Assembly (NCBI GenBank): GCA_002366685.1
Contig: DFBP01000113.1
Coordinates: 1-25,125, forward strand
Direction: 5' to 3'
DNA length: 25,125 nucleotides
Origin: Rhodobacterales bacterium UBA3077
GTDB lineage: Bacteria; Pseudomonadota; Alphaproteobacteria; Rhodobacterales; Rhodobacteraceae
In this document: positions 603 to 16,612 of the stretch, in pieces
How the letters are laid out: every line of letters starts with the position of its first letter
How positions within the stretch are numbered: the stretch's first letter is position 1
Program-made: the position numbers and the translations under genes
The notes under the pieces: model-generated
Told to the model about the DNA's origin: nothing
The model's database searches: none
The model's input: only the letters and a program-made list of their open reading frames with translations

Positions 603-643
603 CCAAGCACTTCCTTCAGCAAATCATTTTGCATGCTCATCTC

Positions 644-683
644 CACTGCCCGGCAGTTGATTGCACAGCAATCAATGAGAGGG
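644..683 (-). repeat. 40-bp hairpin mini-element, copy A
   Basis: CCCTCTCA-TTGATTGC-TGT-GCAATCAA-CTGCCGGGCAGTG: a perfect 8-bp stem plus a terminal palindrome. It interrupts orfA between codons GCT and GAG. Confidence 0.92.
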
Positions 684-967
684 AGCATACATCCGCTTCA
701 GGCGACGGTTCTCCTCAGTCAGCGACTTCATCTCCGACATCATAGACGCGTCCATTCCGCCAAACTTTGATCGCCATTTATAGAAGCTGGCCGAACTCAT
801 TCCGTGTTCTCGGCAAAGCTCTGAAACAGGAACCCCGCTCTCGGCCTGCTTCAAAATACCCATGATTTGCGCGTCGCTGTATCGTGTCTTCTTCATCAAA
901 ATCTCCTCAGATTATTATGCCGAGAAAATTCTACTTGTGAACACCACTAATTTTCGGGGGGATTACC

Positions 968-1096
968 TTATCCTCTCAACCCTGCTCTTTCAGAATCTGA
1001 ATGATCTGTTCGTCCGAGAATCGCTTCTTCATTTGTCCGTCCTTTTGGTTGGGCGGACTCTACATCATTCTGGAGGAGTTCTGGGGGCGTAGGTCA
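968..1096 (-). mobile_element. Remnant (left end and orfA start) of a second IS3-family element, interrupted by the first
   Basis: The minus strand starts TGACCTACGCCCCCAGAACTCC..., then RBS and ATG at 1032 encoding MKKRFSDEQIIQILKEQG*, an IS3 OrfA N-terminus. It abuts the end of the 1-967 element. Confidence 0.8.
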
Positions 1097-1158
1097 ACAT
1101 CTTACCCAACGGGTCTAAAGTGATCAGTTGAGATTTTGTCCCAAATGCAGGGCCCAGC

Positions 1159-1174
1159 ATACCGGAACCGGTAT
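1159..1174 (-). terminator. Hairpin just downstream of the HPF-CSD stop, possible terminator
   Basis: ATACCGG-AA-CCGGTAT inverted repeat; there is no clear U-tract. Confidence 0.3.
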
Positions 1175-1178
1175 CATA

Positions 1179-1757
1179 TCAAGTCTGATTTACGAGCCGC
1201 AATTTGCTGATCGGGCGAACAGTGCTGGCATGTGGTCCACCTTCAGCACCCTCTCTATCCACAACCAACTCGACAGCGCTACCAATTTTGAGATCGTCAA
1301 AGCTATGATCAATCACTGCATTGCGATGGAAATAGATCAACCGACCGTCAGTGGTTGAGATATGGCCGCTGTCTTTCTCTGGCTCAAGGCGCTCAATAGT
1401 TCCCTGAAGTGGGCTTACACCTTCCTCGGGGCGGCCACTGTGGAGCTCTTTATGCTTGCGAAGTTGGCGTTCCATCGCGTTGAACGCATCGCGGACTGTC
1501 ACATCAATGTTTTCATGTGCATTCACATCACCGGGCTCCCGGCCAACAGTTAGCGTACCCATAGGCGTATGAAGCTCAATATCGACTATGTAGCGCATGC
1601 CCTTTGTATGTCGACGCTGCGAAGCCCGCACCCAAACCTTGCAGCTGATAATCCGGTCAAATATCCGCTCCAGCTTGTGGATGCGATTGCTAATCCGCTC
1701 TTCAACAAGATCGGAATGCTCAACGTCCTTGAAGACGATTTGTGCAATATCTGTCAT
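1179..1757 (-). CDS. HPF/RaiA-family ribosome-associated protein fused to a C-terminal cold-shock (OB) domain
   Basis: N-terminal HPF pattern (IVFKDVEHSDLVEERI...RDAFNAMERQLRK) and C-terminal CSD (GHISTTDGRLIYFHRNAV). AAGGA RBS before ATG 1757, so the track's 55-aa extension is not used. Confidence 0.88.
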   Translation of the reverse strand: MTDIAQIVFKDVEHSDLVEERISNRIHKLERIFDRIISCKVWVRASQRRHTKGMRYIVDIELHTPMGTLTVGREPGDVNAHENIDVTVRDAFNAMERQLRKHKELHSGRPEEGVSPLQGTIERLEPEKDSGHISTTDGRLIYFHRNAVIDHSFDDLKIGSAVELVVDREGAEGGPHASTVRPISKLRLVNQT

Positions 1758-1820
1758 GATACGTTCCTTTTTAGCTCGGGTCCTTACTTGGTTACCTGCA
1801 TCCAGCCAGAATGCACTGCT

Positions 1821-1861
1821 ATAGTAGCCAAGCTGTTCATAATGTCTTTGATATAAGTCAT
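1821..1861 (-). promoter_or_regulatory. FNR/FixK-like box with -10 hexamer upstream of the HPF-CSD gene
   Basis: Box 1848-1861 (minus: ATGAC-TTAT-ATCAA), then 21 nt, then TACTAT (1826-1821). Confidence 0.6.
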
Positions 1862-1922
1862 CTTGGAAAGTGTTGATGGTTGACTCGAAGAAAGGCTCCA
1901 CAATTCCGCAGATCACCAGCAC

Positions 1923-3431
1923 TTAAGTAATCTCCGCCAGCCTTTGAAATACAGCATCAGCCTGATTGAGCGCATCTTTGGTTCTGGCCGCAAGCGATAA
2001 AAATATCAGAGCGCTCCCTTCGTCAAAGCTGATCGGTGATATAAAAATGATCCCGCTTTTTGCACCGGGATGCCACAATTCGGTTTTAAATTTATCCAGT
2101 CCGCTTGAAGATGAGTGTTGCAACGGAACCCGAACTTGGTTGTGGGAGATAATGTAGGCAGGCGTTTTGTCCGGGGCGAATAGTAGGTTCATGAGTGACA
2201 TTGGCACTGAGACCCCGCCCCAACGACCGTTGCATTCAATCCAGTGCAGGCTGGCTGATCCGAAATCCTCTCCTGAAATAATAGTATCAAAACTACAACG
2301 CCCAAAATAGCCGAGTGTTTGCATTACATAACCAAGAATCAGGGATCCTCGTGATAGCGTGAAATCCCAATCGTCAGGCAGAATGGCCGGCATTGCGCCC
2401 GAGAACCGGCCAGCTTGTCCGGTAATATTTTGCTCGAATATCCCCTCGATGACAGGCGGACCATCTTCAGCAAGAGGGATCCAGAGCTGGATAGACGGGC
2501 TCGTTAAGACATCATGTTTCCAAACTTGAACCAATATCGGGTAAGGAGCATGATCAACAACATCTGTGATCATTTCATCCAAGTGCCGGTAAAGTTTCTT
2601 TACACCCATACCGGCGATATCAGCTGACAAAATGGGAAAATTGCCAGCCGAACCAGCGCTATCACGAATTTTGATGACGATTTTTTCAAAATCTCGCGCC
2701 AGAGAATGTACGCGGCCAGCCAATGCCGCCTTACCAAAGACGGAATAAGTAGGCGGCACAGAGGATTTGCCAAACAAACGGGTTGTGAGCGATGTGAACC
2801 ATAGTTTGTCATTCGCCTGCACGGTCAGCGATGGCCGCGGTCCGGCAACATGTATTGGCAGGCCAGTATCGCGCCCGAGTTTTCTGGCAAGGGCCCAAAC
2901 GGTACCGGTTGAGATGTGCGCAACCAGAGTAGCGCCGCCGCGTTCTTCAACTTTTGTGCGCAGTTGTTTATAAATGTTTATATCGTTTAAGCATCTGAGT
3001 AGTGTCGGTACAGTGCCATCATCATCCGATACGCCGGTATACAAATACTCACGGCGGCCAAGGCCCAAATCCCTTTCCAGATATTGCTCAAAATCGCGAT
3101 TCTGTTTGCCACCAATAACGACCAGATCGCCCTCTCCGGCAAGGACCGACAAGCGGTATTCAATCGGGCCTGCATTGCGATTTCCAAATAGCCGAATCTC
3201 TCTATTGTCACCAAAAAATATATAAGACGTATCACCCAGCCCTTGCTGAACCTGTGGTTGGAAATAGGAAAGCTCCGCGTGGTTGCGACTCTCGCCTAAA
3301 ATTTCCGAAGCGACAATTTTAACCAGATCTTGTTCAGAGGGCTCCAGCTCGACATCACGCCGCTGGATAATCGGCAGTCGCGAAGGATTGAGCAACCGTT
3401 TCGCCATTTTTCCATTAGCTAATTTTGACAT
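1923..3431 (-). CDS. ATP-grasp-domain protein, probably pre-ATP-grasp/peptide-ligase (PGM1-like) type
   Basis: Motifs ANDKLWF, IKIRDSAGSAGN and WIECNGRWGG match the ATP-grasp pattern. AGGA RBS before ATG 3431. The subfamily assignment is from memory. Confidence 0.65.
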   Translation of the reverse strand: MSKLANGKMAKRLLNPSRLPIIQRRDVELEPSEQDLVKIVASEILGESRNHAELSYFQPQVQQGLGDTSYIFFGDNREIRLFGNRNAGPIEYRLSVLAGEGDLVVIGGKQNRDFEQYLERDLGLGRREYLYTGVSDDDGTVPTLLRCLNDINIYKQLRTKVEERGGATLVAHISTGTVWALARKLGRDTGLPIHVAGPRPSLTVQANDKLWFTSLTTRLFGKSSVPPTYSVFGKAALAGRVHSLARDFEKIVIKIRDSAGSAGNFPILSADIAGMGVKKLYRHLDEMITDVVDHAPYPILVQVWKHDVLTSPSIQLWIPLAEDGPPVIEGIFEQNITGQAGRFSGAMPAILPDDWDFTLSRGSLILGYVMQTLGYFGRCSFDTIISGEDFGSASLHWIECNGRWGGVSVPMSLMNLLFAPDKTPAYIISHNQVRVPLQHSSSSGLDKFKTELWHPGAKSGIIFISPISFDEGSALIFLSLAARTKDALNQADAVFQRLAEIT

Positions 3432-3495
3432 TGCGGTTCCTGCGACATTCGGATCAGTGCTGCCCTTCATACTATATCGTACTTTTCCATACGCA

Positions 3496-3509
3496 TTGAA
3501 ACAAATCAA
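3496..3509. promoter_or_regulatory. FNR/FixK-like palindrome between the divergent ATP-grasp and amidotransferase genes
   Basis: GCA-TTGAA-ACAA-ATCAA-TGC (extended palindrome). -10-like TATTTT lies 23 nt away on plus and TAGTAT 21 nt away on minus. Confidence 0.6.
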
Positions 3510-3569
3510 TGCGCTTGCTGAATAAACAAAAGTATTTTATCATGCTACAATACCATGGAGGTCGTTATT

Positions 3570-4379
3570 ATGTGCCGGCTATATGCTTTTGCTGCCAATG
3601 AACCAACACGTGTGGAATGCAGCCTTGTCCGATCACAAAACAGCTTGATGGCCCAAAGTGCGGGAGATTCCGAGGGTCTGGTGCATGCACATGGCTGGGG
3701 GGTCGCTGACTACCCCGATGATTTGCCAATGATCGAAAAACAACTCTGGGCCGCCTTTCACGGTGAGCATTTTTCTAAAAACGCTTCCCGTATCTATGCG
3801 CACACCGTCGTAGCGCATGTGCGAAGGGCAACCGTTGGTGAACATTCTATTGAAAACACTCATCCGTTTTGCCATGGACGCTGGATTTTTGCCCATAATG
3901 GCACGGTTCCGAACTTCCTTGAGGTTCGTGACAAGATGATGCCCGAAATTGATCCATTGTTCCGCAATAGCATCAAGGGAACGACGGACAGCGAGCATAT
4001 TTTCTACTACCTTATGTCACTCTATCAAGACCATCCCGAAGTCCCTCTCATGGATACTGTCGGCAAAGGTCTAAGGCAGATAATTGATTGGTCTCAGGAA
4101 ATTGATCCGAGCCGAGAAGTTGGCCTCAATATCGTTCTGACCGACGGAGACCAGCTAATCGGGAGCCGCTATAACCGGACGCTATGGCATCTTGAGCGTG
4201 AGTTCGAATTTGAATGCCCGATCTGCGGGAAATCTCACGTGCATCATGACTTTGGATCAGACTATCGAGCGGTGGAAATTGCCTCGGAACCGCTGACAGA
4301 CGAAAACTGGCAGGAAATGCCTGATGGTGTGGTTTATTCCGTGGACGAGGACTATTATTTGCTAACCCAAAAGTTCTAA
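3570..4379 (+). CDS. Class II glutamine amidotransferase (EgtC/YafJ-like Ntn hydrolase)
   Basis: N-terminal MCR (Cys nucleophile), HGWG, AHVRRAT, NTHPF, FAHNG and GTTDSE motifs. GGAGGT RBS before ATG 3570. Confidence 0.92.
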   Translation: MCRLYAFAANEPTRVECSLVRSQNSLMAQSAGDSEGLVHAHGWGVADYPDDLPMIEKQLWAAFHGEHFSKNASRIYAHTVVAHVRRATVGEHSIENTHPFCHGRWIFAHNGTVPNFLEVRDKMMPEIDPLFRNSIKGTTDSEHIFYYLMSLYQDHPEVPLMDTVGKGLRQIIDWSQEIDPSREVGLNIVLTDGDQLIGSRYNRTLWHLEREFEFECPICGKSHVHHDFGSDYRAVEIASEPLTDENWQEMPDGVVYSVDEDYYLLTQKF

Positions 4380-4454
4380 ATAACCGCTGGATATCACGTG
4401 TCGGAGGCTTGTGCCTCAACGCTAATAGAAAAACCCGATATAATTTGTGCTTAG

Positions 4455-5591
4455 CTATTTAACGGGGCGTCCAAACTCGTTTTCCAATGAAATATAGGTT
4501 ATGATATCGGTAATGGATATCACGCCCAGCAGTTGATCTCCGCGCACAACAAGAAATTTTTTCTGACCACCAAGCTGCATTCGGCCTACCAATTCCTTTA
4601 CAAGGTAGTTTTCGGGAACCGAATTATCCGCTGACAAAGGCACGTAGGCCTGCCCCACCGTCAAATCATCCCAAGTAGTACGGTCAATCCCGTGCAGAAT
4701 GTTGCGGTCGATATAACCAAGTAACTCCGCTCCGTCCACCACCGGGACAAACCCAACATTCCGCCCCAAAACAACATCATGCACCAACTCGCTGATCGTC
4801 ATCGAGGGGGAAACGGTTATTGGTCCCCGTGTCATCATCTGTTCGACCGTATGGCCCAGCAAAATCCGATCGACTTTTTGGCTTTCATAGGCTCCGCGAG
4901 ATGAGCCAAAGACAAAAAAACCGATCAGTATAAGCCAAAACCCTCCGACTCCAGCACCGCTGACCACCAAAAATAGCCCCACCGCCATAAAGCTGATGCC
5001 CAAAATGGTGCCAAGTCGGCTCGCAACACGAGTCGCATATTCAAGGTCGGACTTCAGATACCATAGAAAAGCCCGCAGAACTCTTCCGCCGTCCATCGGG
5101 AATGCCGGAACCAAGTTGAAGATCGCAAGCACCAGGTTTGCCAGCCCTAGATAGGCGAATAGGACGATAACGGGTTCATTGGCGCCCATGTTGATCAAAA
5201 CATTGGCCATGACACTTCCAAACAGCGCCAGAGCGAAACTCATGGCCGGACCGGCGATTGCGATCCAGAATTCCGAACGCGCATCTTTGGGTTCGCTTTT
5301 CAACCCTGCAACGCCACCAAAAATGAACAGCGTAATTCCAGTGATTTTCAGGCCATAGGATATCGCCACAACTGAATGCGCCAATTCGTGCAATAACAAC
5401 GATGCGAAAAACCCTAGCATCGCGACAATGCCAAGAGATATATACGTGCTCTGAGATAACCCGGGCAGCAGTTCCGGAAAATACTGCGCGGACAGGTTCC
5501 AGACAAATAATGCAGCGACCAAAAGCCAGCTCGGATCAATGCGGATGTCTATTCCATAGACACTGAAGATTTTGATTGCATTTTTAAACAT
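4455..5591 (-). CDS. Site-2 protease (peptidase M50) with C-terminal CBS domain pair
   Basis: HELAH zinc motif, NLVPAFPMDGGR, several transmembrane segments, and CBS repeats (MMTRGPITVSP..., LLGVISITDI). Confidence 0.92.
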   Translation of the reverse strand: MFKNAIKIFSVYGIDIRIDPSWLLVAALFVWNLSAQYFPELLPGLSQSTYISLGIVAMLGFFASLLLHELAHSVVAISYGLKITGITLFIFGGVAGLKSEPKDARSEFWIAIAGPAMSFALALFGSVMANVLINMGANEPVIVLFAYLGLANLVLAIFNLVPAFPMDGGRVLRAFLWYLKSDLEYATRVASRLGTILGISFMAVGLFLVVSGAGVGGFWLILIGFFVFGSSRGAYESQKVDRILLGHTVEQMMTRGPITVSPSMTISELVHDVVLGRNVGFVPVVDGAELLGYIDRNILHGIDRTTWDDLTVGQAYVPLSADNSVPENYLVKELVGRMQLGGQKKFLVVRGDQLLGVISITDIITYISLENEFGRPVK

Positions 5592-5784
5592 CAATTGGCC
5601 CCGTCAAAAAACGCGTTGTATCTGGAAGAATAATTGATTCCAAGAACTATTACACTTATTTTCGCGACAGTCTAGTCCGGTCCGTCGGCCACCATTCCAG
5701 TGCGCGGAACCCACTAAAATCTTTGCAGGCAGGAAGGATTGGCACCTCCAATAGCCAGATAGTGTATCTGTTGTAGAATTTGCT

Positions 5785-5798
5785 TTGACTTGGGTCAT
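5785..5798. promoter_or_regulatory. FNR/FixK-like box between the divergent S2P and Lon-like genes
   Basis: TTGAC-TTGG-GTCAT, 58 nt upstream of the Lon-like ATG; the -10 hexamer is weak. Confidence 0.45.
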
Positions 5799-5855
5799 TG
5801 TGGGGAGCGAAAGGTAGTGCAATGTTTCGGTGTGTTGAGTTTAGCAGGGGAAGAT

Positions 5856-8297
5856 ATGGAAAAGGAACGGAAAAAATTGGCAGAAAAACCCTCAGGTCTT
5901 CCGGCGACGGCGTTGAGATCAATCTGTGATCCTCAAGTATTGGGGTTCAAAACAACCGCAGATTTGCCTGACTTTTCCGGCCTTTTGGGGCAGGAGCGGG
6001 CTTTGAAAGCCATCGACCTTGCCGCTGGCATCAAATACCCGAGCTTTAACCTTTATGCTTTAGGGCCGGCGGGCACAGGTCGGCACTCGGCCGTTAGAAC
6101 TTCGCTGGAAGCACAAGCATGCCAACGTCTCACGCCTCGGGACTGGGTGTACGTGAACAATTTTCAAGCACCGCACAAACCAATTGCTCTGGCGCTACCA
6201 AGTGGTATTGCCCCCCGCTTCAAAGCGGCAATGGATGAGTTGATAAACGATCTCGCTTCGGCAATTCCGGCTTTGTTTGAGTCAGACGAATACCAGAACC
6301 GGCGGCAGGCAATTGAACAGAAATTTGCCGATGAACGTGAAGATTCATTTCTGAAACTTAATGCTAGAGCGGTAAAAAGAAATGTAAATATTTTACAAAC
6401 TCCAGACGGGTTTGTGGTGACGGCAATAAAAGACGGCAAGGGGCTTAGCCCGGAAGCGTTTAAGAAACTTCCTGCAAAGGAACGTGCTAAAATTGACCGG
6501 CATATTACCGCAACGCAAGACGATTTAGCCGAAGTTTTAAGAGCAATACCAAAACGGGATAAAATGCATCGCAAAGCTGTGGTTGAACTGAATGCTGCGA
6601 TGGCAAAGCAAACGGTAGAAACAGAAATAGACGAGGTCAGAGAGCAATTTGTAGAGATTGCGGGCATTATTGAATACTTTAAAGCAGTGCGCGAAGATAT
6701 TCTGGAAAACGCCGACTATTTCATTCTGGAAACCGAAGAAAGTAGTGACGGACCTTTCCCGATCGTGACTTCACGATATCACGAATATGCGGAATTTCAT
6801 CGATACACTGTGAATGTAATGGTTACGCATGGCGAAAATGGCAAAATCTGTGCCCCGGTAATTGAAGAGCCTTTACCTACGCTCGCCAACCTGACCGGTC
6901 GGGTCGAATATATTTCGACTATGGGTACTCTGGCGACAAATTTTACGCTTATTAGACCCGGCTCTCTGCATCGGGCAAATGGCGGGTATTTGATGCTCGA
7001 CGCGCGCCGGGTCATATCGGAGGCATTTGCTTGGGATGGTCTGAAGCGCTGCCTACAAGATGGTGCCATCTCGATAATTTCGCCTGCGGAAAAGCTCTCT
7101 CTGGCTAGCACTTCTTCGCTTGAGCCAGATCCGATCCCTCTCGATGTGCGGGTTGTTCTAATAGGCGATAGACTGCTATATTCTCTGTTGCTCCACCTCG
7201 ACCCTGATTTCGCTGAGCTTTTCAAGGTTCAGGCCGATTTCAATACTGATTTTGACCGCTCACCAAAGTCTCTAAACCTTTTCGCCAAAATGATTGGATC
7301 GATTGCTAAACGCGAGAGTTTGAAACCACTCAGCGCGGGCGGTGTCGCTCGGGTAATAGACGAGGCTGCCCGCATTGCAGAGGATGCTGAAAAGCTAACG
7401 CTTAGGGTCGGACAAATTGCCGATATTATGCGTGAAGCCGATCATATCGCGCATAACGCGGGTAAAAAGGTTATTACGGACAAACATGTCACGAGAGCAA
7501 TATCTGCGGCTACGGAAAGAGCCAGTCGCGCGCGCGATCTAGTTCAGGAGTCGATCACACGCAAAGTGAGGCTGATTGATACTTCTGGCAAGAAAGTAGG
7601 ACAGATCAACGGCCTCTCGGTGATGCAATTAGGCGGGTTCAGTTTTGGGAGCCCGACCCGGATAACCGCTAATGTCAGGATGGGGGATGGCAAATTTGTC
7701 GATATCGAACGCGAAGTCGAACTGGGAGGACCGCTGCATTCAAAAGGTGTTCTGATCCTGTCCAGTTATTTGGCATCGCATTACGCGTTGGAGGTTCCAA
7801 TGTCGCTTTGGGCATCTTTGGTATTTGAGCAGAGCTATGGCGGTGTGGACGGCGATAGCGCCTCTTCGGCCGAACTCTATGCGCTCTTATCGGCTCTGGC
7901 TGGTGCACCGATTGACCAATCACTAGCGGTAACCGGGTCGGTCAACCAGAACGGTGAAGTGCAAGCCATCGGCGGCGTAAACGAAAAGATCGAAGGATTC
8001 TATGATATTTGCAAACAGCGCCGGTTAACAGGGAAGCAGGGTGTGTTAATTCCTACGGCGAATGTTTCAGGGTTGATGCTAAGGCAAGATATTGCCGAAG
8101 CCGCCGCCAAAGGCAAGTTCCATATCTATCCGGTCACGCATATCAATGAAGGCATTGAGATACTGACAGGGGTACCTGCGGGTAAACGAGGTCGCGGAGG
8201 CACCTTTGGCGCTGGCACACTCAATGATCGGGTAGAAGAAAGATTGAAAAAATTTGCCTATGATCGGCGCGCATTTATGAAGCCTGAGAAGGGGTGA
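5856..8297 (+). CDS. Lon-like protease (AAA-like domain plus S16 protease domain; LonC-like architecture)
   Basis: GQERA, degenerate Walker A GPAGTGRHS, LHRANGGYL, catalytic DGDSAS and GGVNEKIEG. RBS before ATG 5856. Confidence 0.9.
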   Translation: MEKERKKLAEKPSGLPATALRSICDPQVLGFKTTADLPDFSGLLGQERALKAIDLAAGIKYPSFNLYALGPAGTGRHSAVRTSLEAQACQRLTPRDWVYVNNFQAPHKPIALALPSGIAPRFKAAMDELINDLASAIPALFESDEYQNRRQAIEQKFADEREDSFLKLNARAVKRNVNILQTPDGFVVTAIKDGKGLSPEAFKKLPAKERAKIDRHITATQDDLAEVLRAIPKRDKMHRKAVVELNAAMAKQTVETEIDEVREQFVEIAGIIEYFKAVREDILENADYFILETEESSDGPFPIVTSRYHEYAEFHRYTVNVMVTHGENGKICAPVIEEPLPTLANLTGRVEYISTMGTLATNFTLIRPGSLHRANGGYLMLDARRVISEAFAWDGLKRCLQDGAISIISPAEKLSLASTSSLEPDPIPLDVRVVLIGDRLLYSLLLHLDPDFAELFKVQADFNTDFDRSPKSLNLFAKMIGSIAKRESLKPLSAGGVARVIDEAARIAEDAEKLTLRVGQIADIMREADHIAHNAGKKVITDKHVTRAISAATERASRARDLVQESITRKVRLIDTSGKKVGQINGLSVMQLGGFSFGSPTRITANVRMGDGKFVDIEREVELGGPLHSKGVLILSSYLASHYALEVPMSLWASLVFEQSYGGVDGDSASSAELYALLSALAGAPIDQSLAVTGSVNQNGEVQAIGGVNEKIEGFYDICKQRRLTGKQGVLIPTANVSGLMLRQDIAEAAAKGKFHIYPVTHINEGIEILTGVPAGKRGRGGTFGAGTLNDRVEERLKKFAYDRRAFMKPEKG

Positions 8298-8417
8298 GCT
8301 CTTGAGCGGGCAGGGGCTGTGTCTCCTCGAATATGATCCGCTTTCTTTGTTATCGAGTGCCTCTCGGATATCGTAATATTACAAGGATGGCTGGGGTCGA
8401 GCGCAATCTCACCATGC

Positions 8418-8459
8418 TTGACGCAGATCATGGCTCCAAAATTATTTTTGGACTAGAAT
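8418..8459 (+). promoter_or_regulatory. Class II FNR/FixK-type promoter of the hydrolase-PRT operon
   Basis: TTGAC-GCAG-ATCAT (8418-8431), exactly 22 nt, then TAGAAT (8454-8459). This is the geometry of a site centred at -41.5. Confidence 0.68.
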
Positions 8460-8518
8460 TCCCGAATGCACCAAAAAGTGGTTTTGATGCAATTCACAAT
8501 CCGGAGGGTGTCGCAGAA

Positions 8519-9175
8519 ATGAAAAACAGACCTATCAATAAGCGTTTTGTTGAGGTTGGCTCAAAAAATCTGGAAGGCATTCTCCGCGTGCCCAAGGATT
8601 CGATTGGTCTCGTGGTTTTTGCTCATGGGGCAGGAAGTAGTCATCTCAGCCCACGGAACAACTTCGTTGCGGAAAGCCTAGGTCAGCGAGGAATTGCTAC
8701 CCTTCTGTTTGATCTGTTAACAGAGGCAGAAGCGTTCGATCGAAAAAACGTATTCGATATACCGCTCCTTAGTGAGCGTTTGCTTGAGGCGGTCAGTTGG
8801 GCGCACATCGAGACTGAACTAGTTGATCTGCCTGTCGGTTTGTTTGGGTCAAGTACCGGCGCGGCTGCGGCCTTGGTCGCTGCGGCTCATGCGCCAGATA
8901 GAGTCGATGTTGTCGTGTCGCGCGGTGGGCGAGCCGATATGGCCGGAGAGGCACTGCCAAAGGTGCGGTCGCCGACACTGCTCATCGTTGGTGGAAGAGA
9001 CGGCATCGTAGTCAATATGAACGAGGAGGCCAGCAACGCACTTTGTTGTAAAAATCGGCTCGAGATAGTGCCCGGTGCAACGCACCTTTTTGAAGAGCCG
9101 GGCGCGCTTGATCAGGTGGTTGCTTTGGCGGGGGATTGGTTTGAAAAATATCTACGCGTGGCGGGAGAAAAGTGA
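8519..9175 (+). CDS. Alpha/beta hydrolase, dienelactone-hydrolase-like
   Basis: VFAHGAGSSHLSPRN, FGSSTGAAAA, VSRGGRAD and ATHLFEEPG motifs. GGAGG before ATG 8519; the track's upstream extension overlaps the promoter. Confidence 0.85.
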   Translation: MKNRPINKRFVEVGSKNLEGILRVPKDSIGLVVFAHGAGSSHLSPRNNFVAESLGQRGIATLLFDLLTEAEAFDRKNVFDIPLLSERLLEAVSWAHIETELVDLPVGLFGSSTGAAAALVAAAHAPDRVDVVVSRGGRADMAGEALPKVRSPTLLIVGGRDGIVVNMNEEASNALCCKNRLEIVPGATHLFEEPGALDQVVALAGDWFEKYLRVAGEK

Positions 9176-9837
9176 TGAAATCATTTCGTGATCGCATTGA
9201 AGCAGGTCGGTTGCTTGCAGATGAGCTAGCTAAAAAGGAATACCCAGACCCTGTGGTGCTTGCTTTGCCGCGCGGCGGTGTGCCGATTGGCCTAGAGGTA
9301 GCGCGTCGTTTGAAAGCACCGCTCGACCTCGTCATGGTGCGCAAAATCGGCGTGCCTTATCAGCCAGAGCTAGCTGCCGCGGCCGTAGTAAACGGCGATC
9401 ATCCTGAACTTGTGATAAACGAAGCTATCGTCGCCAGAGTCGGCTTAGATAAAAGCGAAATTAATCATCTGGCCGACGTACAGCTTGCCGAAATCAAGCG
9501 CCGACGCGGGATATACTTGAAGGATCGCGCACCAGTTTCTGTAGAAGGGCGAACGGCGATCGTTGTCGATGACGGTATAGCCACGGGAGCCACCGTTCGG
9601 GCATCACTGAAGGCAGTGCGTCGTAGAAATCCTGAAAAACTTGTGCTCGCGGTTCCCGTGGCATCTGCCGACGCACTTGAATTGCTTCGCGCCCAAGTTG
9701 ACGATCTTATTTGCATCGAAACGCCGGAGTTATTCTACGCTATCGGCGCTCATTACATCGACTTTTCGCAGGTGTCCGATGAAGAAGTGGTACTTCTGCT
9801 CAATGAGGCCGACCAGTTATGTGCGCCGTCAAAGTGA
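9175..9837 (+). CDS. Type I phosphoribosyltransferase-family protein
   Basis: VLALPRGGVP and PRPP-binding VDDGIATGAT. The TGATG stop/start overlap couples it to the hydrolase. Confidence 0.9.
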   Translation: MKSFRDRIEAGRLLADELAKKEYPDPVVLALPRGGVPIGLEVARRLKAPLDLVMVRKIGVPYQPELAAAAVVNGDHPELVINEAIVARVGLDKSEINHLADVQLAEIKRRRGIYLKDRAPVSVEGRTAIVVDDGIATGATVRASLKAVRRRNPEKLVLAVPVASADALELLRAQVDDLICIETPELFYAIGAHYIDFSQVSDEEVVLLLNEADQLCAPSK

Positions 9838-9928
9838 TTTCAAGAAATCTGCACCTAAGTCTAAGCTATTACGTTTAATGCGTGGTGTTTTCGCACTCTG
9901 CGGGACAGGAACCAACACAAAATAGAGG

Positions 9929-11203
9929 CTATTCTTTTATATAGGCTTGCCCATCGGCGGCTGGTGGGCGCGCACGGCCGACAAGTCCGGCCACAAGAAT
10001 GATCGTCGCTATATATGGTGCCATCGCCAGAAACTCGGAAGGAATCGGCGTTTGTAGAAGCGCCAGTTTTTGCTGCATGGAATCCGCAAAGCCGAAGACC
10101 AGCGCCGCCATTAACGCCCCGAACGGATGCCATCGACCTACAATCATCGCCGCCAACCCGATATAGCCAAGTCCGTTTGTCATACCTTCGTCAAATCGCC
10201 CGACCGAGCCCAGCGTAAACCATGCGCCGCCAAAGCCAGCAACCATTCCGGCCACAGTCACGTTGATGTAGCGCGTCCGGTAGACATTGATACCAAGAGT
10301 ATCGGCAGCCTGCGGATGCTCGCCGACCGCGCGAGCGCGCAGGCCGCTCCGCGTATAGAACAAGTAATAGGTGGCAACGCAGACCATAATGAACGCGCCA
10401 TAAACAAATATGTTTTGCTGGAAGAAAACCGGCCCGATCACCGGTAGATCACTCAAGAAAGGAATACGAACCGGCCGAAACACTGGGGCATTATTCAGAA
10501 AACGGAACTCCTGATAGACTTGGCTGCTGACGTAAGAAGTCACGCCAAGCACAAAGAGGTTGATCACAACACCGGCGATGATCTGGTCAACGCGGTAAGT
10601 CACCACCAGCGCCGCCAAAATAAAGCCAAACAAACCACCGACCGCAACCGCCGCAGCCAAGCCGCCAAATCCACCAAGCAGCGAACCGACCAACGCGCCG
10701 GTAAAGGCACCCGCCAATAGCATTCCCTCTATGGCGATATTAACGACCGCTACCCTTTCAGAGAGAACGCCTGCCAGCCCACCGAGCGCTATGGGAACCG
10801 CCCGCACAACCGTTGCTTGAAGCATGCCCGTCAGGGAAAACGATTTTCCCGCCGTTGCCCAGACGAGAAACGCGGCAACCGCCAACAACAGCCCAAACCC
10901 CATTGAAAGTCCCGTCCATTTGACTCCGCCACGCATGAACTGTCGCGCGCCCAAAAAAGCCAGAACCGCCGCCGCGATGTAACTGAATGCCATCGCGGGC
11001 ACGACCAGATTAGGGGCCGCCCAAGGATCGTTGGGACGTGACAGGCGGAATACGGCGTCTCCTCCCGACGTGCCAAAGGCAAAGACATAGGCCACAAGGA
11101 CGGATAAGCAAATCAATATCACACCAGTATTTCTGGCCTGACGGACCTTCGCAGTATCCAGTTTGCGAGCTTGAGCATCTATCGGATTCATCGTTTTTGC
11201 CAT
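9929..11203 (-). CDS. ABC transporter permease (nucleoside/sugar type, BMP-associated)
   Basis: LSERVAVVNIAIEGML, GLRARAVGEHP and GLGYIGLAAMIVGRW motifs; multi-TM. Confidence 0.9.
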   Translation of the reverse strand: MAKTMNPIDAQARKLDTAKVRQARNTGVILICLSVLVAYVFAFGTSGGDAVFRLSRPNDPWAAPNLVVPAMAFSYIAAAVLAFLGARQFMRGGVKWTGLSMGFGLLLAVAAFLVWATAGKSFSLTGMLQATVVRAVPIALGGLAGVLSERVAVVNIAIEGMLLAGAFTGALVGSLLGGFGGLAAAVAVGGLFGFILAALVVTYRVDQIIAGVVINLFVLGVTSYVSSQVYQEFRFLNNAPVFRPVRIPFLSDLPVIGPVFFQQNIFVYGAFIMVCVATYYLFYTRSGLRARAVGEHPQAADTLGINVYRTRYINVTVAGMVAGFGGAWFTLGSVGRFDEGMTNGLGYIGLAAMIVGRWHPFGALMAALVFGFADSMQQKLALLQTPIPSEFLAMAPYIATIILVAGLVGRARPPAADGQAYIKE

Positions 11204-11209
11204 ATCCGT

Positions 11210-12343
11210 TTACTCCTTTCCTGCACGGGTTTCTTTTTGAAACCCCCAGGGGAAAATCTTTCTGACCAAAAGCGGCGCGGCAATGAAAACAATTATGAGC
11301 GCCTGAATGATCGCGATCAGGTCGATACTGACCCCGGCATCAACCTGCATCTGGCGGCCACCAGCCTCCAAAGCGCCAAACAACAGCCCCGCCATCAATA
11401 CGCCTACCGGATGGGATCGCCCAAGTAAGGCGACAGCGATGGCATCAAACCCGATTCCCGCCGAAAAGCCGGGTGTTGCCCGCCCAAGCACGCCCAACGT
11501 CTGGTTGGCACCGGCAAGGCCGGCCATGGCACCGGCAAAGACCATAACGATCACGATAATCAACCCCGATCGCATACCGGCATAGCGTGCAGCCTCGGGG
11601 TTGGCCCCACTGGCGCGGAATTCAAAGCCGAAGGTCGTTTTGAACAGAAGCCAGTACACGAGGAACACCGCGACCAGCATCACGAATAACCCGCTATGGA
11701 GCCGAAGGTTGGGGTCTATCCATTCCAGCAACCGGGGGAGCTCGGCACTATCCAGAACCGATCTGGAAATAGGGTCGGCGCGACCTTCACGCTGCACCAC
11801 TGGCAGGCGCAAGATGTAATCAACCAGCCGGTACGACATCAGGTTCAGCATTATGGTGGAAATAACCTCATGAGCACCCGTCGCGGCGCGCAGCCAGCCA
11901 GCGATACCGGCATACAGTCCGCCCGCAACAGCGCCAGCAATAAGGGCAAGCGGAAGGTGCACGTATGTCGGCATTCCGGCAAAACTAAAGCCCACAATGA
12001 CCGCAGCCATGCCGCCGATTAAAAGCTGTCCTTCAGCCCCGATATTAAACAGCCCCGCCCTGAATCCAACAGCCATGCCCAAGCTGGCCAGAACCAAAGG
12101 CGTTGCCGCCGTCAGAGTTTCTGAAATAGCATTTACAGAGCCAACCGAACCCACAACAAGCGCCACGTATGAGCGCCCGATTGTTGCTAGGTCAACATTC
12201 GTTGCCAGCATGGCAACCGCGCCAAGAATGAGCGCTACGATGACCGCAAAAACGGGGACCACGACCATGTCCTCGAAATCAACGCGACCCGGAGCCGCGC
12301 GTTGCAGGAGTTTTTCAGATAAGCTTTCCGTTTGCTCGTTCAT
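11210..12343 (-). CDS. ABC transporter permease (nucleoside/sugar type)
   Basis: FRAGLFNIGAEGQ, GAHEVISTIMLN, GFEFRASGANPEAARYAG and GFDAIAVALLG motifs. Confidence 0.9.
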   Translation of the reverse strand: MNEQTESLSEKLLQRAAPGRVDFEDMVVVPVFAVIVALILGAVAMLATNVDLATIGRSYVALVVGSVGSVNAISETLTAATPLVLASLGMAVGFRAGLFNIGAEGQLLIGGMAAVIVGFSFAGMPTYVHLPLALIAGAVAGGLYAGIAGWLRAATGAHEVISTIMLNLMSYRLVDYILRLPVVQREGRADPISRSVLDSAELPRLLEWIDPNLRLHSGLFVMLVAVFLVYWLLFKTTFGFEFRASGANPEAARYAGMRSGLIIVIVMVFAGAMAGLAGANQTLGVLGRATPGFSAGIGFDAIAVALLGRSHPVGVLMAGLLFGALEAGGRQMQVDAGVSIDLIAIIQALIIVFIAAPLLVRKIFPWGFQKETRAGKE

Positions 12344-13851
12344 GCCACTGCTCCTGCCATTGCTAAACCGATGGTGTTTTTATCGAGTGGATGTGTGGTC
12401 GCATCAAACTCCGCCACGATCCGGCCTTCAAACATCACCACAACCCTATCCGAAAGAGCCATTATTTCATCGAGTTCAGATGAAACAAACAAAACTCCGT
12501 CGCCTTCATCGCGGGCGTTGATGATGCGGCTATGAATATATTCGATTGATCCGACATCAAGCCCGCGTGTCGGCTGCGCCGCAATCAAAAACATGGTTTC
12601 GCGGGACAATTCGCGCGCGACGACCATCTTTTGCTGATTGCCTCCCGAAAGATTACCCGCCGCATCGTGCACCGAGGTCATTCGCACATCATAATCCGCC
12701 GCCACCCGCGCCGAGTTTTTATAGGCTTTTGGCCAGTTTATTACTCGGTGCTTTGAGAAGCGATCATCGTAGTAGGTATCAAGAACCATATTCTCGGCGA
12801 TGCTGAAGTCGGCGATCATACCCATCCGCTGTCTGTCCTCGGGAATATGCGCAATTCCCATCCGGTGCCGCGCCCTTGTCGAGGCGTGCGTGATGTTTTG
12901 ACCGTTGAATTTTACTGTTCCACCAGCTACGCGTGTCAGACCGGTCAGAGCTTCGATCAAAGAAGACTGGCCGTTACCCTGCACGCCCGCAACGCCAACT
13001 ATTTCGCCGCTGTGCACTTTCAGGTTAATGCCATCAACAGCAACATCATCGTTCTCTCGCAACACCGTCAAGTCCTCAATATCCAGCAAAACATCCGCAG
13101 GTGCATAGGGCTCTTTGTCCACGTTAAAACTAACCGGGCGCCCAACCATCATTTCGGCTAATTCAGTCTGTGTTGTTGTTTGGGGGTCTCCCTCACCGAC
13201 GATCTGGCCACGCCGCAAAACGCTAATGCGATCGGAGATATCCAGAATTTCATGTAGTTTATGAGTTATAAAAACAATCGCCTTGCCCGTGTCGCGCAGA
13301 GATTTGACGATCTCGAAAAACTCGGTGACCTCTTGCGGGGTTAACACAGCCGTAGGCTCATCAAATATAATTACATCAGCAGAACGAAACAAAACCTTGA
13401 TGATCTCAACACGTTGCTGAATGCCGACCGGCAGGTTTTCGATCAGCTCGTCCGGATCAACCTCAAGGCCGTATTTCTGGTTAATTTCGCGCACTTGCAG
13501 GCGCGCTTTCTTCAGGTCCAGATAGTCGATCTTTCCCGTTGGCTCAACGCCTAGGATAACATTCTCGGCGACCGTAAAAACGGGGATCAGCATAAAGTGC
13601 TGATGCACCATGCCGATACCGGCACTAATTGAATCCCCCGGGCCTTTGAAATCCACGGGCTTGCCATTAATCAAAATTTCGCCTTCGTCGGCGGTGTAAA
13701 GCCCGCTCAGAACATTCATGAGGGTAGATTTTCCAGCGCCGTTCTCACCGAGAAGCCCCAAAACTTCGCCCGCACGAATTGTCAGATTGACATCGTCATT
13801 GGCGACGACTTCACCGAAACGTTTGGTGATATTGCGTAACTCGACTTCCAA
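12340..13851 (-). CDS. ABC transporter ATP-binding protein (two-domain, CUT2/NupA-like)
   Basis: Walker A GENGAGKS, FDEPT, LSGGNQQK and QPTRGLD. Probable TTG start at 13851 after AGGAG. Confidence 0.92.
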   Translation of the reverse strand: MEVELRNITKRFGEVVANDDVNLTIRAGEVLGLLGENGAGKSTLMNVLSGLYTADEGEILINGKPVDFKGPGDSISAGIGMVHQHFMLIPVFTVAENVILGVEPTGKIDYLDLKKARLQVREINQKYGLEVDPDELIENLPVGIQQRVEIIKVLFRSADVIIFDEPTAVLTPQEVTEFFEIVKSLRDTGKAIVFITHKLHEILDISDRISVLRRGQIVGEGDPQTTTQTELAEMMVGRPVSFNVDKEPYAPADVLLDIEDLTVLRENDDVAVDGINLKVHSGEIVGVAGVQGNGQSSLIEALTGLTRVAGGTVKFNGQNITHASTRARHRMGIAHIPEDRQRMGMIADFSIAENMVLDTYYDDRFSKHRVINWPKAYKNSARVAADYDVRMTSVHDAAGNLSGGNQQKMVVARELSRETMFLIAAQPTRGLDVGSIEYIHSRIINARDEGDGVLFVSSELDEIMALSDRVVVMFEGRIVAEFDATTHPLDKNTIGLAMAGAVA

Positions 13852-13881
13852 TGTACTGCTCCTGACACAGGGACTATAAGG

Positions 13882-13914
13882 TCCGCCGCCAAAGCTCCAA
13901 ACCATGGCGACGGA
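13882..13914 (-). other. Intercistronic stem-loop between the substrate-binding and ATPase genes
   Basis: mRNA strand TCCGTCGCCA-13nt-TGGCGGCGGA, a 10-bp stem with one G-U pair. Confidence 0.5.
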
Positions 13915-13932
13915 TAGCGTTACTTTAGTGTG

Positions 13933-14964
13933 TCAGCCACCGACCGAAATTGAACCGTCAGAAATGCCCTGACGAATAACGTCAAGTTCCTTCTTCAATT
14001 CATCGGAAACCATGGCTTCCATATCATGGAAAGGTGCAAGATCGACACCGCCATTGGCGAGTGTACCCACAAGAACGCCACCTTCGAAAGTGCCGGACAT
14101 AGCCGCTTCGATAACATCCAATACAGTAGCATCCATCCGTTTGGTGATAGATGTCAGATAGACGTGCTGTTTGGCAGGGTCGGTCAGATAAAGGTCCGCA
14201 TCAACCCCAATGATCTTCAACTTGTCTACGCCCAGTTCATCTGCCAGCGCCGCGGAGCCCAAACCTACCGGGCCAGCAACCGGAAGCACAATGTCGGCTC
14301 CTTCGTCATAGAGGTTTTGGGCATAGGCACGCCCGTCATCTAGCGAGTCGAAGTTGTTGGTAAACAACCCTTCGCGGCTATCGACATCCCAACCCAGCAC
14401 TGCAACGTTCGTTCCTTTTTCGGCGTTGTGATAGTTAACGCCGTGAACAAAGCCATCCATAAAGATAGTTACCGGTGGAATATTGATGCCACCAAAAGTC
14501 CCGACAATGCCGGTCTCAGAGACACCTGCAGCTAAGTAGCCCGCCATAAACGCAGCCTCGTCGGTGGCGTAGACCTGCCCGAGAACATTCGGAATTGCCG
14601 GATCGTAAGCATAATCGACGATCGAGAATTTTTGATCAGGGTTGGCTTCGGCCGCTGCCTGAGTTGCATCGCCCAGTAAGAAACCAACGGTAATGATAAC
14701 ATCACATTGGCCGCCGAGTAGCGAAACGATATTCGCCTCGTAATCCGTTTCGGCTTGGGATTCCAGAAAACGACCATCAATCCCTAGGGTCTCCTGTGCG
14801 TCCAGAACGCCTTTCCAGGCTGTTTGGTTAAAGCTGTTGTCATCAATACCGCCAGTATCTGTCACCTGACAAGCTGTGAAATCCGCCGCGGCAACTGTGC
14901 TGCCCAGCAAGATTCCGACTCCTGAAATCAGGGCCAGCACCTTATTTTTTTGTAGTTCAAGCAT
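13933..14964 (-). CDS. BMP-family ABC substrate-binding protein (nucleoside/purine-type)
   Basis: TDTGGIDDNSFNQ, EAAFMAGYLAA, PVAGPVGLG, IIGVDAD and TSITKRMD motifs. Sec-type signal peptide. Confidence 0.9.
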   Translation of the reverse strand: MLELQKNKVLALISGVGILLGSTVAAADFTACQVTDTGGIDDNSFNQTAWKGVLDAQETLGIDGRFLESQAETDYEANIVSLLGGQCDVIITVGFLLGDATQAAAEANPDQKFSIVDYAYDPAIPNVLGQVYATDEAAFMAGYLAAGVSETGIVGTFGGINIPPVTIFMDGFVHGVNYHNAEKGTNVAVLGWDVDSREGLFTNNFDSLDDGRAYAQNLYDEGADIVLPVAGPVGLGSAALADELGVDKLKIIGVDADLYLTDPAKQHVYLTSITKRMDATVLDVIEAAMSGTFEGGVLVGTLANGGVDLAPFHDMEAMVSDELKKELDVIRQGISDGSISVGG

Positions 14965-15096
14965 CGCATATTCCTCCTGATAAAATGGAGTAGATGGAAG
15001 GCATCAATAACAGAACCCGAGTATCCCACCTCGCTCCTATAGCAGATTTTGTCTGCCAGCATCCGCCCATTCAATCACTGATCGAGCGAAGCATCA

Positions 15097-15138
15097 ATGA
15101 TTTAAGTCAAAAACATGAGGGATTAAACGTGATACACT
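15097..15138 (+). promoter_or_regulatory. Class II FNR/FixK-type promoter upstream of the DUF2267-like fragment
   Basis: ATGAT-TTAA-GTCAA (15097-15110), exactly 22 nt, then TACACT (15133-15138). Confidence 0.62.
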
Positions 15139-15184
15139 GAAGGGAGTCGAACGCATTTCTTAACATTAGAGTAAGGAGATCGTT

Positions 15185-15250
15185 ATGAGCAATCTGGGCC
15201 TCGAAATGATCGATCGCACTGTTCAATTGACCCAGGAGTGGATCAACGAG
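15185..15250 (+). pseudogene. 5' fragment of a DUF2267-like gene truncated by the IS3
   Basis: AAGGAG RBS, then MSNLGLEMIDRTVQLTQEWINE, which resembles DUF2267 N-termini as recalled. The frame runs into the IS end. Confidence 0.6.
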
Positions 15251-15305
15251 GTGCCCCTAGAATTGTAGACACCTTTTTACCTAAAAATAAGGCAATGAGG
15301 CCACC

Positions 15306-15618
15306 ATGGCAATGCAAGATTCAGTGAGCTTTTCAAATGGGATGCGGTGCATCAAATTGTGGTGCGGGGATATCCGGTTGCGGAGGTTTCGAAGCGATTA
15401 GGTGTCAGCTCTCACTCGTTATACGCTTGGGTGAAGAAGTTTTCCAAAGCACCTGACATTGACACCGGAGACGAACACGCAACCGAGAACAGGCGGTTAA
15501 GGCGGGCGCTGGCACGTGTCACGGAGGAGCGTGATATCCGAAAAAAGGCCACCGTATGTCGACCGGCAGGTGAATGGCACATTCACCGAGAGGGAACTTC
15601 GCCAGAGATGCCAAATGA
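15306..15618 (+). pseudogene. IS3 OrfA pseudogene
   Basis: DAVHQIVVRGYPVAEVSKRLGVSSHSLYAWVKKF...ERDIRKKATV|YFARDAK*. There is an apparent 1-nt deletion after the ATG and a 38-bp insert near the end. Confidence 0.85.
15558..15595 (-). repeat. 38-bp hairpin mini-element, copy B (divergent)
   Basis: Minus: (T)CCCTCTC-GGTGAATG-TGC-CATTCACC-TGCCGGTCGAC, a perfect 8-bp stem. Removal restores ACC GTA TAC TTC GCC AGA GAT GCC AAA TGA. The boundary is ambiguous by 1 nt. Confidence 0.8.
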
Positions 15619-15632
15619 AGTATGCGTTTATT

Positions 15633-15672
15633 CACTGCCCGGCAGGGTATTGCGCAGCAATGCAATAGAGGA
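15633..15672 (-). repeat. 40-bp hairpin mini-element, copy C
   Basis: Minus: TCCTCTAT-TGCATTGC-TGC-GCAATACC-CTGCCGGGCAGTG. Removal restores TTT ATT GAA GAG CAT. Confidence 0.9.
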
Positions 15673-15858
15673 GAAGAGCATCGCCCTCTGTTTTCGGTCC
15701 GTGCGATGTGCCGTTGTTTGCGCGCTCACCCCAGTGGTTTCTATGCGTGGCTGAAGAACCCTCACAGCAAAAGGGCCGCCAAAGATATGCGTCAGACGAA
15801 GTTGATTAAAGAGGCTTGGGAAGAAAGCGGCAAGGTTTACGGCTACCGCAAGCTGCAT

Positions 15859-15898
15859 CCCTCTATTTGATCGCTGCGCAATCAGCTGCCGGGCAGTG
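15859..15898 (+). repeat. 40-bp hairpin mini-element, copy D
   Basis: CCCTCTAT-TTGATCGC-TGC-GCAATCAG-CTGCCGGGCAGTG. Removal restores AAG CTG CAT GAT GAT CTC. Confidence 0.92.
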
Positions 15899-16346
15899 GA
15901 TGATCTCTGTGATCAAGGTGAGACCTACTGCCCTAAACGTGTGGGGCGTCTGGTTCGGTTGGGCGGTATCAAAGCCCAGATCGGCTATAAACGCCGCCCT
16001 GGCAAGTATGGCGGCAAACTATCGGTTGTGGTGGATAACACGTAGAATCGCCGCTTTGATGTCGATGCACCGGACAGGTTCTGTGTGACTGACATCACCT
16101 ATATCAAAACCTATGAAGGGTTTTTGTCTCTAGCGGTCGTTATTGATCTATATTCCCGTCGTGTGGTCGGTTGGGCGACGCACAGCCGTCAATACACCGA
16201 CCTTGCTCTGCAAGCAATACTGATGGCGGTGTGGCGACGCAAGCCATTGAATCAAGTGTTGATCCATTCCGACCAAGGCACACAATTCACCAGCATGGAA
16301 TGGGCAACATTTCTAAAGCATCACAATCTTGAACATAGCATGAGCC

Positions 16347-16387
16347 CCCTTTCGGCAGATTGCTCCGCAATCGCCTGCCGGGCAATG
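16347..16387 (+). repeat. 41-bp hairpin mini-element, copy E
   Basis: CCCTTTC-GGCAGATTGC-TCC-GCAATCGC-CTGCCGGGCAATG. Removal restores ATG AGC CGA CGA GGG AAT TGC (MSRRGNC). Confidence 0.9.
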
Positions 16388-16612
16388 GACGAGGGAATTG
16401 CCATGATAATGCCGTTGCCGAGAGCGTTTTTAATCTGTTGAAACGGGAACACATCAGACGGCGACTATATAAAACCAGAGAAGACGCAAGGCGTGATATC
16501 TTCGATTACATCAACGGCTTCTATAACCCGCGCCGGAGACACTCAACATTAGGCTGGAAAAGCCCCTTGGCTTTCGAAAGGATTGCCGCTTAAATGAGAT
16601 CTTGGGGCCGCA

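Follow-up and report, generated by a model that had tools for sequence, protein, structure and literature searches.

Short hairpin inserts in the transposase genes of insertion sequences of Rhodobacteraceae

The hairpin inserts and their host elements

The window analysed here is the complete 25,125-nt stretch of contig DFBP01000113.1 from Rhodobacterales bacterium UBA3077 (C84:1-25125 of our genome G000, a metagenome-assembled genome of 2.6 Mb in 308 contigs that is 74% complete). It contains two insertion sequences (ISs) of the IS3 family whose transposase genes are interrupted by five short inserts, each built around a hairpin. These inserts, and the related inserts of other genomes, are the subject of this study. 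The features are:

1-899, minus strand: IS3-family element 1, truncated by the contig end; orfA starts near 896, an A6G slippery site lies near 597-603, and orfB runs from 569 downwards.
644-683, minus strand: hairpin copy 1, 40 nt, on the same strand as orfA of IS3 element 1, between codons ...M-Y-A and E-M-S...
15300-16640, plus strand: IS3-family element 2, decayed; it holds hairpin copies 2 to 5, has an in-frame TAG at 16043-16045 and, compared with its homolog L002, shows a 1-nt gap near 15308.
15558-15595, minus strand: hairpin copy 2, 38 nt, antisense to the gene and a few bases past the A6G frameshift site of IS3 element 2; its 3' box is a variant, ending ...GGTCGAC.
15633-15672, minus strand: hairpin copy 3, 40 nt, with a partly decayed stem, antisense, between M-K-Y-A-F-I and E-E-H-R of orfB.
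15859-15898, plus strand: hairpin copy 4, 40 nt, sense, between K-L-H and D-D-L of orfB.
16347-16387, plus strand: hairpin copy 5, 41 nt, a CCCTTTC / CAATG variant, sense, within the conserved M-S-R-R-G-N-C-H-D-N-A motif of the rve domain.

All five inserts were found where the original prediction had placed them, and share a layout that is common but not identical between copies; copy 3, for example, starts with TCCTCT. Each of the five lengths (40, 38, 40, 40 and 41 nt) shifts the reading frame, as had been claimed. Their location within transposase frames of two IS3 elements agrees with the Pfam domains of both hosts, HTH_Tnp_1 (3.8e-24) and rve (2.5e-15) for element 1 (3-899, minus strand), and HTH_Tnp_1, rve and rve_2/3 for element 2 (15347-16593, plus strand). 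The 13-mer CTGCCGGGCAGTG of the 3' box, with up to two mismatches, is matched six times in the window where 0.76 matches are expected, a number reached in none of 100 shuffles. The remainder of the window had been described as free of copies, and profile scans of the whole assembly gave none further above noise there.

The two hosts are in different states. Copy 1 is the sole visible lesion of IS3 element 1 in an alignment with three relatives, the element itself being cut by the contig end. The in-frame TAG of IS3 element 2 is CTG in its relatives, and the 1-nt gap (~15308) adjoins the start codon; with these two lesions the element is dead for reasons besides the hairpins. The last ~135 bp of this element (16498-16631, comprising the C-terminal codons and the end) recur alone, in many copies in relatives with 76-91% identity, for example at 7 places in G011. 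The word depth in the metagenomic run X1 is 4,000-6,000 for this segment compared with 50-300 for the body of the IS. The segment may represent an end module that IS3 elements share, or else a solo-end repeat.

Anatomy of the element

The consensus of 113 distinct copies from many genomes begins with the 5' end CCCTCTC, followed by three base pairs, a bulged A, six base pairs, a loop of 3-4 nt and the return strand, and ends with CTGCCGGGCAG(T/C)G. The usual length is 41 nt, and variants with shorter and longer stems occur. The 3' box is a 15-nt perfect palindrome when the stem ends in CA, and on its own forms a mini-stem of 4-5 bp at most. The two ends of the element are unlike each other in this consensus.

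The boxes are nearly invariant across copies, and the stem covaries. In the stem 88.6% of cells pair, compared with 65.7% in shuffles and 32-46% in slid controls. There are 166 double changes against 41 in the shuffles, and none of 500 shuffles reached the observed value. Copies 1, 2 and 5 fold well as single-stranded DNA (copy 1 with -8.6 kcal/mol, z -3.1), and the stems of copies 3 and 4 are partly decayed.

Filled and empty alleles

Uninterrupted IS alleles were found for all five copies, in relatives or in environmental contigs, confirming every junction. At the position of copy 1 exactly 40 nt are missing in three relatives of the same genus (G013, G006 and G005), which read ...ATGTATGC(N)↓GA(R)ATGAGC..., where the arrow marks the insertion point. 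Copies 2 and 4 are missing from L002 (G015) and L003 (G010), two IS copies that are 71-74% identical to the window element. Copy 3 is missing from L003, and occupies the same site in L002 and L004. Copy 5 is common to the window element, L002 and L003.

The environmental evidence comes from Logan contigs of three sequencing runs (X1, X2 and X9) rather than from reads, and shows the existence of empty forms, not their frequency. Contigs of X1, a marine metagenome that contains 73% of the words of the window and may be the sample from which it came, skip exactly 15558-15595 (copy 2) with a depth of 144. Those of X2 and X9 skip exactly 40 nt at copy 4, and all three runs have empty forms of copy 3. 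The empty allele of copy 5 is found in X2 and X9 contigs that are ~85% identical to the window; they carry a few bases instead of the insert, and the gene reads M-S-R-R-G-N-C.

The junctions of the filled and empty pairs have zero duplicated and zero lost bases. Beyond the window, an empty-site homolog exists for 68 of 129 sites, up to 95.9% identical and on the same contig (the L136 pair). The hairpins thus enter DNA cleanly, with no target duplication and no loss of bases. The restoration of a long open reading frame (ORF) on excision does not discriminate true from shifted boundaries (59% against 44-52%), long open frames being common in many frames of this GC-rich DNA.

Two relatives of the window elements carry hairpins of their own. 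In L209 (G005:C122), which is related to IS3 element 1, the copy-1 site is empty and a 39-nt antisense hairpin lies ~60 nt downstream. This hairpin, a few bases past the A6G frameshift site, matches copy 2 of the unrelated IS3 element 2 in relative position and in orientation, and its stem is of similar type. L003 (G010:C24), aligned to the window at ~16113, has a private 39-nt hairpin after ...ITYIKT that is missing from the window and from L002, and is a further independent hit in this IS lineage.

Restriction to mobile-element genes

Two profile scans of the whole G000 assembly found seven copies, five in the window, one on contig C74 and one on contig C244. DNA similar to IS pieces amounts to ~6 kb of the 2.6 Mb, yet six of the seven copies lie there. 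Even with a fivefold larger IS content the chance of this is of order 1e-11, as rough arithmetic in which four copies share one IS and so are not independent. The seventh copy (C244) breaks a gene resembling that of the plasmid pRiA4b ORF-3 protein, by tblastn only, and the short pieces flanking the C244 and C74 copies have no Pfam matches. None of the seven is intergenic. The G000 contigs contain 592 runs of N (2-188 nt, 39,676 nt in total) in which copies could hide; one of these (C74:1595-1645) lies in the IS fragment adjoining a hairpin copy.

Across Rhodobacteraceae, at least 129 of 135 sites lie within mobile-element genes, of the families IS3, IS5, IS6, IS21, IS66, IS256 and IS91 and of integrases. 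The original prediction had the inserts only inside IS3 transposase genes. This needs widening, since the genes struck belong to at least eight transposase families and also include integrases and one plasmid gene. A spread through neutral DNA across the genome was not seen, in G000 or in the family.

This distribution was examined in two ways. ORF pieces abutting 139 unique sites match 27 Pfam families; apart from one DUF6880 and one Amidase_2 match, these are families of transposases, integrases or IS helpers. The main families are rve (17), HTH_21 (13), rve_3 (12), DDE_Tnp_1 (12), DDE_Tnp_1_5 (6) and Transposase_mut (3), with IstB (2), Phage_integrase (2), IS240 (2) and IS66 (1) among the others. 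Control pieces taken likewise 2.5 kb away match 85 mostly ordinary Pfam families, with rve only twice. In the second, homology to hairpin loci in other genomes was found for the flanks (±250 nt) of 121 of 135 sites, compared with 7 of 88 controls; 8 of the remaining 14 sites are transposases by Pfam.

Some copies lie where different ISs meet. The C74 copy (1771-1809; locus L199, C74:1590-1924) is located exactly where two transposase fragments on opposite strands join, an IS3-type orfA N-terminus (plus strand) on one side and a helix-turn-helix segment reading '...LGIPRTTFYR' (minus strand) on the other. In G402 (L035:1489-1540) an rve-type C-terminus is similarly joined to a truncated IS5-type copy at a hairpin. 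Hairpin copies may be recombination joints between different ISs.

Target sites and their reuse

The target logo of 97 unique sites is C(66%)↓G(72%)A(64%)T(59%)G(53%), with ~2.8 bits. Insertion occurs at a loose C↓GAYG site and in both orientations relative to the gene. The logo is too small for sequence alone to explain the specificity for ISs.

An IS5-family (IS427-like) IS found in 15 genomes at 62-86% identity has seven insertion positions. Every position has one fixed orientation, three being sense and four antisense, and the L093 copy is empty at all seven. Site D has been filled by three variants, one with a short stem and two with long stems of differing length, and such differences are hard to derive from each other via point mutation. 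The variable stem was considered as a guide to the target, and was ruled out by the different stems at the same site. Occupancy cuts across the IS copies, with sites C and F filled in L112, D and F in L075, and B, C, D and E in L156. The tree of this IS is star-like and cannot order the gains.

Copy 5 of the window presents a similar case. The IS copies that share it have a ratio of nonsynonymous to synonymous substitution (dN/dS) of 0.08-0.11 with dS above 1, and their inserts differ by only ~10%. Since copy 5 is present in distant IS copies and missing from closer (~85% identical) relatives, there have been either repeated hits at the same position or precise loss. Recurrent insertion and precise excision both require an active, site-specific process. 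Judged from these alignments, occupied and empty alleles do not follow the relatedness of the ISs.

Distribution and hitch-hiking

The pattern is present in 155 of 401 genomes of the order, comprising 154 of 394 (~40%) in one family and none of 6 in a second; a reversed control pattern gives 0 or 1 match per genome. The carriers include Ruegeria, Sagittula, Sulfitobacter, Shimia, Phaeobacter, Roseobacter and others, which places the element in Rhodobacteraceae. Counts with the strict pattern reach 74 per genome, and the 3' box alone is found ~114 times in G245 and 61 times in G402. Viral contigs contain three true copies, one of them within an IS3-type transposase.

Copies also travel with their hosts. 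In G402 an IS5-family IS of ~1.26 kb with four inserts is present at nine places, five aligned copies being 98.9-99.9% identical. At one IS5-family site, one and the same insert was found in eight genomes, which belong to different genera. The amplified IS of G402 shows that filled IS copies keep multiplying, their transposase presumably being supplied in trans. Both the copy number and the taxonomic spread of the hairpins are therefore passive in part.

Search for an enzyme, a parent element and a catalogued family

The original prediction had suggested looking for a longer element or an enzyme gene flanked by the same termini; these were sought by a box search in G402 and at the Y1 and Y2 transposase loci, and were not found. 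In G402 there are 61 3' boxes and 41 matches to the full pattern, and all seven readable 'solitary' boxes proved to be full elements with a mutated 5' box.

The Y1 transposase domain (Y1_Tnp) is present in 47 of 401 genomes. The intact Y1 loci (L189-L194) contain no hairpin copy, and a Y1 transposase as the mobiliser was ruled out by its absence from the two genomes richest in hairpins. The Y2 domain (Y2_Tnp, IS91 type) is present in 59 of 401 genomes. It is found in 10 of 14 genomes with at least 10 copies compared with 57 of 394 overall (odds ratio 17.7, p 1.2e-6), an association in which related genomes are not independent and for which the IS256 control family is also enriched (10 of 14 compared with 143 of 394 overall); Y1 is present in 4 of the 14. 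Hairpins also sit inside Y2 genes (L186).

The hairpin-rich genomes G137 and G245 contain intact 2.5-kb elements (L179-L188), each genome with 3 to >10 near-identical copies, that encode a tyrosine recombinase and a Y2 transposase of IS91 type. Their left end has a conserved small hairpin (CCGC-TCTC-GCGG). These are active IS91-like elements.

Rfam gave three chance-level matches (E 2.5-7.3), none of them on an insert, and no description of the family was found in the literature by core sequence or keywords. This agrees with the original prediction, in which no described element of this type was recognised.

Discussion

The inserts are best explained as a family of ~41-nt, gene-less, single-hairpin mobile DNA elements that has spread over Rhodobacteraceae. 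We class it with the miniature hairpin mobile elements; its target range is unusual, and well supported. A non-autonomous miniature element that prefers IS DNA was what the sequence of the window had first suggested, and the location of the copies, the empty alleles and the missing catalogue match all support this. The same prediction had offered a hyperparasite or a host silencing mechanism; the IS targeting common to both is borne out, and neither an enzyme nor a parent element was found by which to choose between them. We consider it probable that the element is an IS-targeting hyperparasite that disables insertion sequences.

A structure-specific enzyme would move such an element in trans, recognising its conserved boxes and bulged hairpin. 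With considerably less assurance, we suggest that the likeliest route would be through single-stranded DNA, as for the HUH 'peel and paste' elements, with seamless insertion and excision. Restriction to mobile DNA could then arise from an exposed state of the DNA, such as single strands during copy-out transposition or transfer, rather than from shared sequence. The net effect of such a hyperparasite would be the disabling of insertion sequences.

Several points weigh against this reading. No mobilising enzyme was found in searches for longer elements and for Y1 and Y2 transposases; Y1_Tnp was not found in the two richest genomes, G245 (~114 cores) and G402 (61 cores), and Y2_Tnp is missing from 4 of the 14 genomes with at least 10 copies. 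The ends of intact IS91-like and IS200-like copies, tried as a source, share no box with the hairpins, and the profile search of them gave nothing significant. To our knowledge the HUH transposons described have two end hairpins, not one, and for several of the target families (IS5, IS6) no single-stranded stage is known. Of the abutting ORF pieces about half have no Pfam match, and their IS nature depends upon the flank-homology test. Lastly, the genomes are mostly drafts, with IS copies under-assembled, and those that are related do not count as independent.

A restriction to ISs could in principle arise by survival alone. Insertion would then be random at C↓GAY, with copies in genes purged, copies in spacer DNA single and decaying, and those borne by ISs multiplied by hitch-hiking. 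The weak target motif is consistent with this, and hitch-hiking is real, as is clear from the IS with four inserts at nine places in G402 and from the insert shared at one IS5-family site by eight genomes of different genera. However, inserts that are private to one IS copy (copies 1, 2 and 4, and the L136 pair) are likewise all in ISs; no more than 6 of the 135 sites could be non-IS, though spacer DNA is many times more abundant, and none of the seven G000 copies is intergenic. Exact reuse of a position by different variants is also not expected from random insertion. We regard survival and hitch-hiking as the sole explanation as improbable.

The hairpins might instead be tools of the host, written as a standard cassette into transposase genes by a chromosomal enzyme, possibly guided, so that they would not be selfish DNA. 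Their restriction to mobile-element genes of unrelated families would fit, as would the failure to find either an element-borne gene or a parent element. The hot spots are often at catalytic motifs (in an IS6-type gene before the D of DETY, in an IS5-type gene before DSTG, and in the IS427-like gene before IEIMF and IDAT), but Asp codons would be favoured by a GAY preference alone. Neither a candidate gene nor a template locus was found. Moreover only ~40% of the sampled genomes carry the element, many as a single copy, a patchiness typical of selfish DNA, and the many stem subfamilies per genome resemble a diversifying replicator. On this evidence a host silencing system seems very unlikely.

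A different role is suggested by the strong purifying selection on the ISs that share copy 5, whose inserts have changed so little. The inserts could be reversible or tolerated locks in the life of the IS, precisely removed from the DNA or the transcript, with filled ISs remaining functional or able to be re-armed and selection keeping the boxes and stem. The near-invariant boxes and covarying stems, the continued amplification of filled ISs, and the filled state of farther relatives where nearer ones are empty would all be consistent with this. Yet the inserts occur in both orientations, with four of the seven sites of one IS antisense, which speaks against removal from RNA, and their lengths are not multiples of three. 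Insert-free copies such as L093 could supply transposase in trans, and recurrent insertion at hot spots explains the same data. We hold this role very doubtful. In a stronger form, the hairpins would be reversible, precisely excisable IS locks that a dedicated enzyme, encoded by the host or by an element, writes and removes at fixed transposase positions by sensing the physical state of mobile DNA; this proposal, taken by itself, we consider rather unlikely.

Finally, that the element is a fused-end miniature of a known IS family (IS91-like with integrase and Y2, or IS200/IS605) moved by the transposase of that family is highly improbable: an absence of target duplication is shared with HUH elements and the association with Y2_Tnp is stronger than for Y1 or the IS256 control, but that association is confounded by IS load and by the hairpins inside Y2 genes, four rich genomes lack Y2 and the richest lack Y1, the ends of intact copies gave no match to the hairpin profile, the target differs from GTTC/CTTG, and the 'solitary' 3' boxes examined in G402 are all full elements.

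The hyperparasitic element that we favour differs from the known systems that it most resembles. Small hairpin repeats, such as repetitive extragenic palindromic (REP) sequences and miniature transposable elements with inverted repeats (MITEs), are residents of spacer DNA. The REP/REPIN-RAYT system is similar in being formed of short (20-40 nt) imperfect palindromes with a tag beside the stem, gene-less and in high copy number, with no target duplication and with covarying stems. Yet REPs are extragenic and usually in inverted pairs, whereas our hairpins are single units inside mobile-element genes. In REP/REPIN elements one end of the palindrome carries a conserved tetranucleotide tag, GTAG or CGTC (PMC3733652), and the hairpin consensus has neither. 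Nor was a flanked RAYT (Y1 HUH) gene found, Y1 being missing from the richest genomes. A MITE mobilised by a DDE transposase would have terminal inverted repeats and a target-site duplication, and the hairpin has neither.

Elements of the IS200/IS605 family and their miniatures (PATEs) move as single strands by 'peel and paste', with two subterminal hairpins, a Y1 transposase and a defined tetra- or pentanucleotide target anywhere in the genome. They are alike in being hairpin elements that insert seamlessly with no target duplication and with a short motif adjoining one end (here C↓GATG), but the present family has one covarying hairpin and an 11-15-nt palindromic box, a ~3-bit target and a restriction to IS genes. 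As for the IS91 family, the hairpin profile does not match intact IS91-like ends, and the target logo is again not GTTC/CTTG. The attC sites of integrons have R''/R' core sites (RYYYAAC ... GTTRRRY) bounding a hairpin, with insertion at G↓TT. There is no such GTT...AAC core in the hairpin consensus, and the junctions are C↓CCCTCTC and CAGTG↓GAT.

Other systems come closer in their choice of target. For the RUP element of Streptococcus pneumoniae a preference for ISs was once proposed, by which it would keep functional transposases in check (Oggioni and Claverys 1999, summarised in PMC3049150), an idea like that of the original prediction for the hairpins. A later whole-genome analysis gave no support for such a preference of RUP (PMC3049150). 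RUP is 107 bp long with terminal inverted repeats and target duplication, unlike the hairpin, whose preference for ISs is strong. Elements of the IS1111/IS4321 type insert into the inverted repeats of transposons, and IS1397 inserts into the loops of REPs. Their preferred target is also other mobile or repeated DNA, but they are autonomous elements of 1-1.5 kb with one defined target, whereas the gene-less 41-nt hairpin enters the coding regions of many unrelated transposases. The Rickettsia palindromic elements and the mitochondrial 'byp' inserts are small palindromes in protein-coding genes. These are in frame or bypassed, in housekeeping genes whose protein survives, while the hairpins break the frame of transposases in either orientation.

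The hairpin family is a clear case of parasitism on parasites, reaching at least eight IS families in much of a bacterial family. The inserts explain many of the 'broken' transposase annotations in Rhodobacteraceae. A choice of target that is not explained by sequence points to recognition of 'mobile DNA' as such, which is of mechanistic interest and possibly of use as a tool, and the 13-15-nt palindromic box together with the bulged hairpin provides a bait for finding the DNA-processing enzyme. If the inserts were indeed reversible locks, they would constitute a layer of transposon control of a kind not described in bacteria. The hairpins inactivate IS copies and may re-arm them, and could thereby shape the IS load and the genome stability of these abundant marine bacteria.

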